Shown here piece by piece: positions 58,785 through 64,000 of a stretch of DNA of 64,000 bases (position 1 is the first letter of the stretch; each line of letters begins with the position of its first letter). Source of the stretch: an uncultured Pseudomonadales bacterium. Lineage in GTDB: Bacteria; Pseudomonadota; Gammaproteobacteria; Pseudomonadales; CANNCY01. The notes below the pieces were generated by a model that worked only from the letters and a program-made list of their open reading frames with translations, ran no database searches and had not been told where the DNA came from. The stretch covers positions 258,305 to 322,304 of the forward strand of contig CANNCY010000004.1 in NCBI GenBank assembly GCA_947503335.1, given 5' to 3'. A program made the translations under genes and the position numbers.

Positions 58785-60137
58785 TTATGGGGCGCGATTG
58801 CTAGATATCGTTTCTACTAATTCTGAAATATTAAATGGTTTACTCATAAAATCATTCATGCCAGCATTTAAACAGCGCGTCTTGTCTTCAGGCATCGCGT
58901 TAGCAGTAAGTGCAATAATGGGCGTCATGATACCTTTATCTCTAATCTGCTTACTTGCACCTAGGCCATCTAAGTTGGGCATTTGCATATCCATCAAAAT
59001 AAGGTCGTATTGCTTATCTGATTCAGCATGATTGACGGCTTCAATACCGTCGTTAGCAACATCAACGATGGCGCCGTGATCTTCGAGAAGCGTAACGGCT
59101 AATAATTGGTTAACAGGGTTGTCTTCTGCGAGCAGAATGTACATGCCTTCAATAAGTGAGCTGTTTGGTGCAGTAGCAGAGGAGACTACATCATTAGACG
59201 AAGAAATGGGTAAGGATAGTGACACTGTAAACGTAGACCCTTTGTCAACAACAGACTTAACATCTACAGTAGCATTCATTAAGCGTGCTAACTCAACGCA
59301 AATGGCAAGTCCTAGGCCTGTGCCACCATATTCGCGCGTAGTGCTCGAGTCAGCTTGCGAGAACTTTTCGAACAAAAACTCGACGCGATCTTGCGCAATG
59401 CCAATCCCCGTGTCTGAGCACTCAATAATCAAATTAGCCTCGGTTTTAGTAAGGCTACCAGATAAGCGTAGCTCTACGTGACCTGCAGACGTGAACTTAA
59501 CCGCATTGGAAAGAAAGTTCTTTATAATTTGGTTAAGCCGATAAGGATCGCCAACAAGAGTCAACGAGTCGTCGAACTCTGAGGAAAAATATAATTTGGT
59601 ACCAACCTCATCAGCTTTTGCCTGATATAACGTGACACACTCAGATAGTGATTTATTCAGATGAAAATCAATGGCTTCTAGTTCGAGCTTACCGGCTTCT
59701 ATTTTCGAAATATCTAAAAGGTCGTTAATGAGCGCGAGTAGACCTTGCGAAGCAGAAGACATATTATCTACGAATTCGGTGTCACGTTCACTTAGATCTG
59801 ATGTTTGCAGTAGCTGGATAAAGCCAATGATGGCATTCAGGGGTGTACGTATTTCATGGCTCATTGTAGCTAGGAAATCGCTTTTCGCCTGGCTTGCGTT
59901 TTCTGCTGCTTCTCTAGCCTTAATGGCCTCGGTCGTTTTGCTACGAACTTCAGAATCTAAATCGGCATTTAACGATTCTAGATCTTTCAGTGCGTGATAA
60001 AGCTCAAGACTTTTTTCTTCAAGAAGTTGCTCGGCCTGTTTTCTGGCGGCGCGCTCTCGTTCGATACGACGTTTAAATTTAGCCTCAATATTAGAAACGC
60101 CGTCAGACATCACAAGGTCACTTTTTTGAAAGCTCAA
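58785..60137 (-). CDS. Cytoplasmic hybrid histidine kinase / response regulator, H-NOX-associated (HnoK/HahK-type)
   Basis: N-terminal coiled coil, H-box SHEIRTPLNAIIG, N-box NFLSNAVKFT, DTGIGI, GTGLGLAI. Receiver ILLAEDNP...ILMDMQMPNLDG...SKPF. The listed start is a TTG overlapping hnoX by 20 nt; an ATG at 60110 lies 7 nt after the hnoX stop. Confidence 0.85.
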   Translation of the reverse strand: MSFQKSDLVMSDGVSNIEAKFKRRIERERAARKQAEQLLEEKSLELYHALKDLESLNADLDSEVRSKTTEAIKAREAAENASQAKSDFLATMSHEIRTPLNAIIGFIQLLQTSDLSERDTEFVDNMSSASQGLLALINDLLDISKIEAGKLELEAIDFHLNKSLSECVTLYQAKADEVGTKLYFSSEFDDSLTLVGDPYRLNQIIKNFLSNAVKFTSAGHVELRLSGSLTKTEANLIIECSDTGIGIAQDRVEFLFEKFSQADSSTTREYGGTGLGLAICVELARLMNATVDVKSVVDKGSTFTVSLSLPISSSNDVVSSATAPNSSLIEGMYILLAEDNPVNQLLAVTLLEDHGAIVDVANDGIEAVNHAESDKQYDLILMDMQMPNLDGLGASKQIRDKGIMTPIIALTANAMPEDKTRCLNAGMNDFMSKPFNISELVETISSNRAP

Positions 60138-60654
60138 ATATTGCTTGGGTCATATCGTCACTTATCTTGGCACTATCAATGGTAATCTGTTCGCCAAAAT
60201 GGTCGATGCAACCCGTTATAAGACCCTTCGCAAAATATCCAAAAGGACGAGACGAGCTATAGTTCATTGTCATCCTGTTGCCATGCGATTCGATATCAAA
60301 TTTAGGGAGCTCAGCGTCAGGATGAAGCTTTCTTACTTCGACATGAATGTGATCGTCAATACGCTCTAGAAAATCAAATGTTGACGACACATTATCAAAG
60401 AATGAGGGGTATAGAGTGAAGAATCTACCAAAGAGGTGTTTGCCATAGGTTTCGATGAGATCTGGAACTGCTACATCAACCTTGTCTGATAGCGCTACAA
60501 CTAGCGCCACAAGTTCTTGATAGTCGTAGTTCCCTACACTCGTGTAAACACCACCTGAATCAATATTAGACTCATCAATAATTTCATCTAACACATCATC
60601 ACCAAACGCTGTTTCGACCAATTCAAAAAACTCTGTAAATACCATACCCTTCAT
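60118..60654 (-). CDS. hnoX: H-NOX (heme nitric oxide/oxygen binding) sensor protein
   Basis: 178 aa with the MKGMVFTEF... N-terminus typical of HNOB. Candidate proximal His at 102/104 (DDHIHVEV), Pro117, and Y132-S-S134-S-R136 matching the heme-propionate YxSxR motif at the expected spacing. Confidence 0.8.
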   Translation of the reverse strand: MKGMVFTEFFELVETAFGDDVLDEIIDESNIDSGGVYTSVGNYDYQELVALVVALSDKVDVAVPDLIETYGKHLFGRFFTLYPSFFDNVSSTFDFLERIDDHIHVEVRKLHPDAELPKFDIESHGNRMTMNYSSSRPFGYFAKGLITGCIDHFGEQITIDSAKISDDMTQAIFELSKK

Positions 60655-61985: not shown

Positions 61986-64000
61986 CAGCTTACCTTACTC
62001 ACCGCCATAAACTTTTTAAGAATCTTGACGATCTCTTCGTCTTTATATGGCTTAGATATGACGTAGTCCATACCACCGTCAATGCACTGCTTATGTTCCG
62101 CAGCACTCGTAAGGGCGGTAGCACCAATTATGGTCGGCTTTGGTTCATGATTTAGTTGTCTTATCTTACCAGTTGCCGCAATACCTCCCATGCCTGGCAT
62201 GATGCAGTCCATAAAGATCAGGGGAGTTTGATTAGTAACATAATGTTCAATTGCGTCTTCTCCAGAACCAACCGTATCTACAGTAAGCCCTTGTGAGCTT
62301 AGCATATCGCTAAGAATAAATTGCTGAACAGGATCGTCATCTACTACAAGTGCACGAGTGCTTTCGACGGCCGTATCTTCAGCGTCCGAGTTAATAATCT
62401 CTTCTAATTTAAGGGCGAACTGACGATTGTCATTAGGGCGATAAAATGTGTGGTCTACGTGTTCATAAACGCCAGCAGCAACATCTGGGCTACTAACACT
62501 GAGTATCAGTTTGCACGGCGATGTTAGTTTCTTCATTCTTGTTCGAAGCGTTTTACAAAACGATCCTAGCTCAATCCCCTGTACCGTGTCAGTAAGCATA
62601 ACTGCGTCGTATTCTTCGACGATCTTGATATTTCTAAATAGCTCGCTTGGCTTTTCAATGGCCTCTACCTGCCCATAGTAGTCATTCAAAATATTCGATA
62701 AAACCGATACTTGCAAAGAGCTAGACCCACATACCAAAAATTTTCTTCCATCGAGAATCTTCTTTGGAGCATCAAACAAATCAGGAGAAATATCGATATT
62801 CATGACAAACCGGTGAAACTGATCTCCATGGCTAAACTGATGGGTCTCAAAGGTTGTACTGTCGTCTACTAAGCTACGTGCAATGTGACGGTTATCTGTC
62901 TCGTTGTCGGCTTCTTGCCAGTCGATGGCTGAGATTTCGTTAAATGGAGATTCAATGTCTTTGAAGTTCACAATTTCAAGCGTAAGTCCCACGTGATCGA
63001 TGGTGCTAGAGGATGTGGTATAGCATTTCAAAAATACGCAGTCATGCTTTAGCGAACTAATGACGTTTGATATATGAAGCAGAAGTAACCAATAAAAATT
63101 AACCGGGCTACCGTGAATTGTTAAGGGCAGCGTGCGATCAACATAGCATTCAAAAATCTTATCGTTACGCCGACATTTTGATGACACTGATAACGCAATT
63201 TCATTGATCATTTTAATTAACTGAATCGTATCTTGCTTTGTCGAAGCATTAGTAACGCTAAATATTTGATCAAAGTTCTCAGCAAGGCTCTCTAGCGTGT
63301 CGGTGGCGGTATTTATCTCGGTGCCCAATAGTGCAACTTCTTCAGATGCTTCGCTAACTAATACTTTGAGGCCACCTTTGATGGTATTCGATAGTGCCCT
63401 TATCTCGAATCCAATTACTTTGTACAAAGATGCATACAAATCAATATGCATCTGCGTGTCTTCAATTGACTGATAGAGTCGCTGGATACTCGAGTAGATT
63501 GTTCTCGCGTCGGTATGCATCGATGTGTCGTTAAGTGCTTCGGCGATGACAGATGAATTACCTGCACTCAGATCGTCTTTAATCTTGATAGAAAGCTCTT
63601 TTTCTTTTGCTATTCGATCATAGTAATGTGACCGCCTAGATGACTGATATTGATAGTCGATTAAAGATAAAATTACTGCTATCAAAATACATATAAGGCC
63701 CATAACAAAAATGTTATAGAGAGACTGAAGTTCAGTATCTCTATGCCTGACTACCGATGAAATGCGCCATTCTCTAAGCGAGTTGCGAAACTTGGCGATC
63801 GCTACTAAATCTTTAAGATTACGATTATTTTTGTACAGTTCTATGTGGAGATCTAAGTTGTGAATATCAAAGCTGCCAGCGGTTTGTATATAGTCTCGCT
63901 CATTGGCTGCAGCGTTCTTGAAGTGGCTTAAGGTGACATCAAGCGTCTCAAAATAATCAGATAAGCTTTCAGGGCTACACCGAGCTGGACAACTAAGTGC
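61985..64000 (-). CDS. Degenerate hybrid sensor (HK-like core lacking the phospho-acceptor His) with C-terminal receiver; 5' end beyond window
   Basis: My translation of the minus strand shows the frame stays open from the listed ATG (63703) up to nt 64000 (...ALSCPARCSPESLSDYFETLDVTLSHFKNAAANERDYIQTAGSFDIHNLDLHIELYKNNRNLKDLVAIAKFRNSLREWRISSVVRHRDTELQSLYNIFVMGLICIL...). The true start is therefore probably upstream and the listed Met sits in a TM helix. The H-box position reads GFEIRALSNTIKGG. The genuine receiver lies at the C-terminus (ALVVDDDP...IFMDCIMPGMGG...SKPY). Confidence 0.7.
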   Translation of the reverse strand, partial: ALSCPARCSPESLSDYFETLDVTLSHFKNAAANERDYIQTAGSFDIHNLDLHIELYKNNRNLKDLVAIAKFRNSLREWRISSVVRHRDTELQSLYNIFVMGLICILIAVILSLIDYQYQSSRRSHYYDRIAKEKELSIKIKDDLSAGNSSVIAEALNDTSMHTDARTIYSSIQRLYQSIEDTQMHIDLYASLYKVIGFEIRALSNTIKGGLKVLVSEASEEVALLGTEINTATDTLESLAENFDQIFSVTNASTKQDTIQLIKMINEIALSVSSKCRRNDKIFECYVDRTLPLTIHGSPVNFYWLLLLHISNVISSLKHDCVFLKCYTTSSSTIDHVGLTLEIVNFKDIESPFNEISAIDWQEADNETDNRHIARSLVDDSTTFETHQFSHGDQFHRFVMNIDISPDLFDAPKKILDGRKFLVCGSSSLQVSVLSNILNDYYGQVEAIEKPSELFRNIKIVEEYDAVMLTDTVQGIELGSFCKTLRTRMKKLTSPCKLILSVSSPDVAAGVYEHVDHTFYRPNDNRQFALKLEEIINSDAEDTAVESTRALVVDDDPVQQFILSDMLSSQGLTVDTVGSGEDAIEHYVTNQTPLIFMDCIMPGMGGIAATGKIRQLNHEPKPTIIGATALTSAAEHKQCIDGGMDYVISKPYKDEEIVKILKKFMAVSKVS

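Follow-up and report, generated by a model that had tools for sequence, protein, structure and literature searches.

Giant adhesins exported by type I secretion systems (T1SSs) govern the surface attachment of marine and pathogenic bacteria, and to our knowledge the cyclic di-GMP (c-di-GMP)/LapD-LapG switch is the sole well-understood post-translational control of such proteins. The locus described here lies in a 64,000-nucleotide stretch of contig CANNCY010000004.1 (assembly GCA_947503335.1) from an uncultured Pseudomonadales bacterium, referred to as the window, and combines genes of a giant-adhesin T1SS with hnoX, which encodes a predicted stand-alone haem sensor of nitric oxide (NO) of the H-NOX family, and with a hybrid histidine kinase gene. 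The closest described sensory systems are found in Vibrio: HqsK, a hybrid kinase with the Hpt protein LuxU as phosphate acceptor, is inhibited by NO/H-NOX (PMC6759604), and HnoX-HahK of V. fischeri acts on biofilm via the Hpt domain of SypF and LuxU (PMC12369376). In Paracoccus denitrificans, H-NOX influences the level of BapA, a T1SS adhesin, through the diguanylate cyclase DgcA, and the H-NOX/DgcA genes (Pden_3719/3720) are unlinked from Pden_2411-2413 (PMC5588039).

The hnoX-kinase pair of the window resembles the HqsK and HahK systems in that a stand-alone H-NOX gene lies directly upstream of a cytoplasmic HisKA-HATPase_c-REC kinase lacking an Hpt domain, and surface attachment or biofilm is the expected output in both. 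It differs in its predicted co-transcription with T1SS structural genes; moreover, its likely Hpt and terminal receiver belong to a secretion operon rather than to a quorum-sensing or syp locus, with no DNA-binding regulator evident. A T1SS-secreted biofilm adhesin is tied to H-NOX-based NO sensing in Paracoccus and, as proposed, in the window; in Paracoccus a diguanylate cyclase mediates the effect and the genes are unlinked, whereas here they are linked and a phosphorelay is proposed. As in the LapA/LapBCE loci of Pseudomonas and in Bap/RTX loci, a giant repeat adhesin is encoded beside its own ATP-binding cassette (ABC), TolC-like and, presumably in the window, membrane fusion protein (MFP) genes (PMC8277102), and, as in the LapA/LapD-LapG system, the locus encodes a membrane-anchored signalling protein, here named sREC. 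The window system differs from the latter in that no LapD or LapG homologues were found at the locus, its adhesin gave no match to RTX repeats (HemolysinCabind), it has two ABC proteins, one of them degenerate, and its regulator is of the two-component type (Hpt plus pseudo-kinase-receiver) instead of a c-di-GMP receptor. The Pseudoalteromonas BapP adhesin cluster was considered as a member of the same family and rejected, being a MacAB-like system without a receiver protein. Full-text searches of open-access papers and preprints returned no description of hnoX linked to T1SS genes, in agreement with the novelty claimed for this link by an earlier reading of the DNA (the sequence-only reading), and none of a T1SS operon in which Hpt and receiver proteins are embedded. 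On genomic grounds, the locus appears to join an H-NOX phosphorelay to a giant-adhesin T1SS whose core belongs to a rare, sREC-type family.

Four close-packed genes occupy the minus strand between 58785 and 64000, in the order sREC, TolC-like outer-membrane factor (OMF), hnoX and hybrid kinase (Table 1). The sREC stop overlaps the TolC-like start in TGATG (61983-61987), and the TolC-like stop overlaps the hnoX start in ATGA (60651-60654). The kinase could start either at TTG 60137, overlapping hnoX by 20 nt, or at ATG 60110, leaving a 7-nt gap; the latter start is favoured because the public gene call is 441 residues long and homologues start 2-4 nt after hnoX. Order, strand, junctions and all four gene identities had been read correctly from the letters alone. 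The length of 572 residues given to the first gene was wrong, as the sREC frame is open up to the window edge with no upstream stop and the full-length protein (P0173) has 724 residues; the start of the operon therefore lies beyond the window. Overlapping start and stop codons are commonplace in operons and unremarkable alone. The linkage stands above chance because the same gene order and the ATGA overlap between TolC and hnoX recur in a relative, the 4.7-kb metagenome contig L001, whose TolC is only 56% identical to that of the window (H-NOX 74%, kinase 69%, sREC 62%). The NO-sensor module is thus physically linked to a T1SS OMF gene, and this linkage is real, is kept across substantial divergence and is confined to a small clade; the arrangement is not peculiar to one strain, a restriction that the sequence-only reading had named as counting against its proposal.

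The product of hnoX matched Pfam HNOB (PF07700) over residues 2-160 at 135.2 bits (cut-off 25.5; 2.6e-39) and, among solved H-NOX proteins, matched 6ocv best (6.5e-44). H104, P117, Y132 and S134 are invariant across a 30-sequence H-NOX alignment, and R136 of the Y-x-S-x-R propionate-binding motif is present in the window protein. H102, which had been listed together with these residues, is variable, so that H104 is the proximal histidine. The 178-residue protein is therefore assigned to H-NOX and is predicted to bind haem and NO. The kinase that directly follows carries HisKA, HATPase_c and REC domains in Pfam, with neither a sensor nor an Hpt domain; its top matches among curated models are the LuxQ, BarA and TorS cores, with the LuxQ type scoring best. 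The protein shares 63% identity with the kinases encoded after hnoX in Umboniibacter and in a Pseudomonadales metagenome-assembled genome (MAG), and the H-NOX proteins of these two, the next-closest to that of the window (67-71% identical), are encoded in simple hnoX-kinase pairs with neither a TolC gene nor sREC beside them. In 80 hnoX loci of reference genomes, an OEP gene was found within 10 kb in only three and adjacent in none. In Umboniibacter and a related MAG, genes for a CCP_MauG cytochrome c peroxidase and a DAHL-domain hybrid kinase (820 residues) precede the hnoX-kinase pair (L005 6246-9733, L009 6205-9767), and the core of the 820-residue kinase is 34-35% identical to the second hybrid kinase of the window.

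The TolC-like protein matched Pfam OEP (PF02321) in two stretches (157.3 bits, 5e-46), and aligned over its full length both with TIGR01844 (residues 18-427 against 2-406 of 414), at 156.4 bits and thus under the cut-off of 225.15, and with E. coli TolC (1ek9, 3e-10). Its AlphaFold2 model (pLDDT 86.4, pTM 0.74) has the TolC protomer fold, with Foldseek TM-scores of 0.75-0.80 to E. coli TolC and ST50 at E of about 1e-23. The protein is a genuine but divergent OMF. A search of 5.8 billion protein clusters returned the protein itself and one 56%-identical protein, all remaining matches being at most 28% identical, and scanning metagenomes with the TolC alignment yielded no relatives. One of the 28% relatives, P0003 (L004), was examined as a further case of hnoX linkage and rejected, as its gene lies next to those of a DEAD-box helicase and a PLD-like protein. 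BLAST scores and a neighbour-joining tree without bootstrap support group the window TolC with the OMFs of sREC-type T1SS operons (133-177 bits, against at most 104 bits for generic TolC).

Searching with the non-receiver part of sREC revealed a small and sharply bounded family, with members of about 720-760 residues and 37 cluster representatives among 1.84 billion proteins in an exhaustive search. The family operon has a characteristic order: a small Hpt gene (in many loci), an HlyD/AprE-type MFP, sREC, an OEP/TolC-type OMF, a short ABC and a long ABC protein. Such operons were present in about 17 loci besides the window, and none of these contains hnoX; the standard order is seen in L090 (uncultured Shewanella), L091, L093-L098 and L101-L106. 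A giant cadherin/Big_9 adhesin gene lies divergently beside every related T1SS operon, and a conserved DNA-binding regulator is absent from these loci. Throughout the family, the stop codon of sREC overlaps or abuts the start codon of the OMF gene (TAATG, TAAAATG or TAGATG), so that the TGATG of the window is an inherited T1SS feature. Compared with their counterparts in sREC-type loci, the window proteins are 40-47% (long ABC), 37-45% (short ABC), 28-32% (OMF) and 35-36% (sREC) identical. The window contains ABC genes, an OMF and a giant adhesin and no MFP gene, which would lie past its end: in all related loci the MFP gene is immediately upstream of sREC, and in L092, the closest relative, the gene at this position ends in an MFP C-terminus 58-61% identical to those of L090 and L091. 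This accords with the earlier statement that OMF genes are normally grouped with ABC and MFP genes, the ABC genes of the window being in the adjacent convergent operon. Several family operons are headed by a gene for a Pfam-confirmed Hpt protein whose histidine motif reads HSLKG. Most Hpt-bearing loci have no kinase, leaving both the Hpt and the sREC receiver orphan there.

These comparisons bear on the origin of the hnoX linkage. The hnoX and kinase genes appear to have been appended, at its 3' end, to the MFP-sREC-OMF segment of a T1SS operon, and not the reverse, because the sREC-OMF operon is standard in about 17 hnoX-free loci and the nearest hnoX-kinase pairs lack TolC. The sequence-only reading had instead placed a TolC gene inside a pre-existing H-NOX operon (sensor-REC, hnoX, kinase), with the NO-sensing operon setting the amount of channel. 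Contiguity and tight coupling of the four genes are what such an insertion would produce, and there is one signalling operon, L015 (5298-14207, in a gammaproteobacterial MAG), in which hnoX, kinases and an sREC-like gene stand together. That gene, however, is downstream of a kinase and not upstream of hnoX, the sREC/OMF overlap extends through the whole family, to whose OMFs the window TolC is homologous, sREC-OMF flanked by MFP and ABC genes is the norm in T1SS loci without hnoX, and the nearest hnoX-kinase pairs have no adjacent sREC or TolC. An insertion of TolC into an H-NOX operon is therefore very improbable. Co-transcription would couple the amounts of channel and sensor, as had been proposed, but it does not follow that NO sets the amount of channel.

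The ABC genes of the window, which adjoin the adhesin gene, appear from comparison with the family order to have moved into a convergent operon that ends in the second hybrid kinase gene, whose start overlaps the long ABC stop by 4 nt. Each of the two T1SS sub-operons (sREC-OMF and the ABC genes) thus terminates in a kinase gene, and the stop codons of the two kinase genes are 15 nt apart (58769-58785). No terminator-like hairpin was found in this 15-nt interval, and antisense read-through between the two operons may occur. A scan for promoters and terminators found sites no more frequently than in shuffled sequence, with no clear internal promoter or terminator. The G+C content is about 41% over the T1SS and kinase genes (52000-64000) against 46-51% in the adhesin gene and the remaining window. 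Elsewhere, signalling genes of these kinds occur in other combinations: (i) the five-gene operon of L015 encodes a HAMP hybrid kinase (905 residues), a hybrid kinase (638 residues), H-NOX, a hybrid kinase (444 residues) and the sREC-like protein (734 residues), and includes a homologue of the 441-residue kinase and a full-length homologue of the 849-residue kinase, with no T1SS genes within the 16 kb examined; (ii) in L105, a homologue of the 849-residue kinase lies downstream of the ABC genes; (iii) in L089, the T1SS genes adjoin a gene for a hybrid kinase that contains an Hpt domain of its own. As judged from gene content, these partly independent associations favour a common pathway over chance.

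Pfam recognised only the REC domain in sREC (1.9e-23), with no HisKA and no HATPase_c. Its AlphaFold2 model (pLDDT 75.8, pTM 0.43) begins with a transmembrane and periplasmic helical part, followed by a DHp-like hairpin of two helices, an alpha/beta domain resembling CA, a pseudo-receiver and, C-terminally, a receiver, and the top Foldseek match was full-length ShkA (6qrj, 2e-19), followed by the kinase regions of RetS, GacS, CpxA and HK853. The hairpin bears an H-box-like motif, IGFEIRALSNTIKGG, in which the phospho-accepting histidine is replaced by Phe in the window protein and by Phe or Tyr in all eight aligned members, and the G-boxes (DxGxG, GxGxG) were not found in the eight members aligned. 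The C-terminal receiver is intact, with acidic pocket, Asp, Thr and Lys (DD...D...T...K). The model is that of a membrane-bound pseudo-hybrid kinase laid out like ShkA: the protein shares with ShkA of Caulobacter crescentus (PMC7010744) the order DHp, CA, pseudo-receiver and receiver, and differs from it in being membrane-anchored with a periplasmic helical domain and in lacking the phospho-accepting histidine and the G-boxes. The presence of RetS and GacS kinase regions among the fold matches, the conservation of a DHp-like hairpin without its histidine and the lack of an output domain are also what would be expected if sREC were a kinase modulator, forming a RetS-GacS-like heterodimer, or a phosphate sink, with transcription of the adhesin and T1SS genes as the output via an unlinked response regulator. 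This alternative leaves unexplained the constant placement of sREC between MFP and OMF, even in loci without a nearby kinase, and finds no conserved DNA-binding regulator in these loci; we consider it clearly unlikely.

The reading that we favour, as somewhat probable, is that the region is half of a rearranged giant-adhesin T1SS locus to which an H-NOX phosphorelay module feeding Hpt and sREC has been added. The ancestral operon would have been Hpt, MFP, sREC, OMF, short ABC and long ABC, with hnoX and the hybrid kinase gene later coupled translationally after the OMF gene. By analogy with the HqsK and HahK systems of Vibrio, NO-bound H-NOX would lower autophosphorylation of the adjacent hybrid kinase. 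Both hybrid kinases of the window lack an Hpt domain and therefore need a separate one, and both may pass phosphoryl groups via the small Hpt encoded by this operon type, to end on the intact C-terminal receiver of sREC. Located in the inner membrane, encoded between MFP and OMF and presumably unable to autophosphorylate at the usual site, sREC would then tune secretion or surface display of the adhesin, and co-transcription would ensure that the sensing module is made whenever the secretion machine is made. Most likely, then, an NO-regulated kinase feeds the Hpt and sREC of the locus and so controls adhesin export, and the arrangement suggests that gas sensing is wired directly into that export. 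A more specific version, in which sREC is a regulatory subunit of the T1SS and phosphorylation of its receiver, by phosphate from the NO-responsive pair and from the second, periplasm-sensing kinase via the Hpt of the operon itself, gates export or surface retention of the adhesin post-translationally, is tentative and in our estimate unlikely.

Several observations weigh against the reading of an added H-NOX phosphorelay. The hnoX linkage is found in two lineages only (the window and L001/L092), and could be a recent rearrangement little tested by selection. The Hpt and MFP genes belonging to the locus in the window would lie beyond its end, as judged from relatives. The pseudo-kinase call combines a model of moderate confidence with a motif judged by eye, profile-profile comparison and BLASTP aligned only the receiver domain of sREC with true hybrid kinases, and Pfam recognises no output domain in the protein. 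In L094 (8249-8611), an Hpt-like open reading frame (ORF) has SKKLK in place of HSLKG and no Pfam Hpt match, and in L101 (7944-8248) there is no space for an Hpt gene; the phosphorelay may thus not be universal in the family, being degenerate or supplied from elsewhere in some lineages.

If the juxtaposition were fortuitous, the kinases would only share a transcript with the secretion genes and would have targets unconnected with secretion, for example quorum sensing or enzymes acting on c-di-GMP. The small number of lineages agrees with this, as do the absence of an adjacent OEP gene from all 80 reference hnoX loci, the clear rearrangement of the locus relative to the family standard and the presence in the window of another hybrid kinase and a GGDEF protein as possible targets. 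It accounts poorly for an ATGA coupling that survives divergence to 56% (TolC) and 74% (H-NOX) identity, and for the co-occurrence of sREC-like genes, homologues of the 849-residue kinase and hnoX in varied combinations in L015, L105 and the window. Furthermore, the orphan Hpt and receiver of the family require a kinase partner, just as the two window kinases require an Hpt. On these grounds a fortuitous juxtaposition is regarded as unlikely, and the addition of an H-NOX phosphorelay to a T1SS locus is retained as the preferred explanation.

Table 1. Genes of the T1SS and H-NOX locus, with positions counted from the first nucleotide of the window
Feature	Coordinates	Strand	Remarks
sREC	61985..64000	minus	pseudo-hybrid histidine kinase (as modelled), membrane-anchored, C-terminal receiver; truncated at window end, full protein 724 aa
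TolC-like outer-membrane factor (OMF), 444 aa	60651..61985	minus	local type I secretion system (T1SS)
hnoX, stand-alone H-NOX haem NO sensor (predicted), 178 aa	60118..60654	minus	Pfam HNOB
H-NOX-associated hybrid histidine kinase, 441 aa	58785..60110	minus	HisKA, HATPase_c, REC; no Hpt domain
Second hybrid kinase, 849 aa	56220..58769	plus	periplasmic helical sensor, HAMP, HisKA, HATPase_c, REC; ends ABC operon
Long T1SS ABC permease/ATPase, 708 aa, LssB-like	54097..56223	plus	TIGR03375
Short degenerate T1SS ABC half-transporter, 537 aa	52487..54100	plus	Pfam ABC_membrane and ABC_tran
Giant cadherin/Big_9-repeat adhesin, 6990 aa, presumed substrate	31348..52320	minus	divergent from ABC operon
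Small adhesin-like ORF, 389 aa, possible second substrate	30134..31303	minus	weak Cadherin_5 and tandem-95 matches

MARTX RtxB/RtxD/RtxE is an atypical T1SS with two different ABC genes. The window system is similar in having two ABC genes and differs, from general knowledge of MARTX, in gene order and substrate type; we know of no pseudo-kinase-receiver between the MFP and OMF genes of the MARTX system. The long ABC protein of the window matched TIGR03375 at 2.8e-90 and retains Walker A and B, with a non-canonical signature, LPxG(I/V). In the short ABC protein the signature LSGGQ is replaced by PF(S/P)RQ and the Walker B DE by DD, in all seven family members aligned. Each ATP site of a heterodimer would thus carry an unusual signature motif. 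In the 849-residue kinase, the periplasmic domain matched the Pfam NIT (nitrate/nitrite sensing) domain at 24.9 bits, exactly the gathering score, and the kinase next to the T1SS genes of L089 has a PilJ-type sensor; a nitrogen-oxide theme common to the 849-residue kinase and H-NOX is possible, and weakly supported.

The giant adhesin of the window consists of about 40 Cadherin_5/Big_9 repeats together with lectin-type domains (Laminin_G, pentaxin, NPCBM). Its acidic C-terminal region is common to the adhesins of related loci, and its C-terminal ('...DWTTA...VDP...') and N-terminal ('N.LNDAVEQ') sequences recur in the L101 adhesin, which suggests, by sequence similarity, a family-specific secretion signal. 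The 389-residue ORF, which lies downstream of the giant adhesin gene and is separated from it by 45 nt, aligns with the last 150-350 residues of related-locus adhesins and may be a further, small substrate that shares this C-terminal region. In 27422-29601, the adhesin genes are followed by those of a trypsin-like serine protease (415 residues) and an FHA-domain protein (313 residues), and in L091 a trypsin-family gene (918-1610) lies beside the Hpt-MFP operon; these trypsin-type genes could encode adhesin-processing proteases. The window also encodes a hybrid histidine kinase of 710 residues (19819-21951) and a TPR-GGDEF diguanylate cyclase of 624 residues (1832-3706), which may also belong to the signalling network or be among its targets.

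The sREC family described here is a small protein family without a curated model, newly picked out by these searches. The sREC-type T1SS family places an Hpt and a pseudo-kinase-receiver inside the secretion operon, and the variant in the window adds a plausible NO input via H-NOX. If the gating role of sREC were true, it would be the phosphorelay counterpart of the c-di-GMP/LapD-LapG inside-out switch and the first two-component receiver built into a type I secretion apparatus. The locus offers a testable hypothesis of an environmental gas signal reaching a secretion machine, and research on H-NOX gains a new kind of candidate output.

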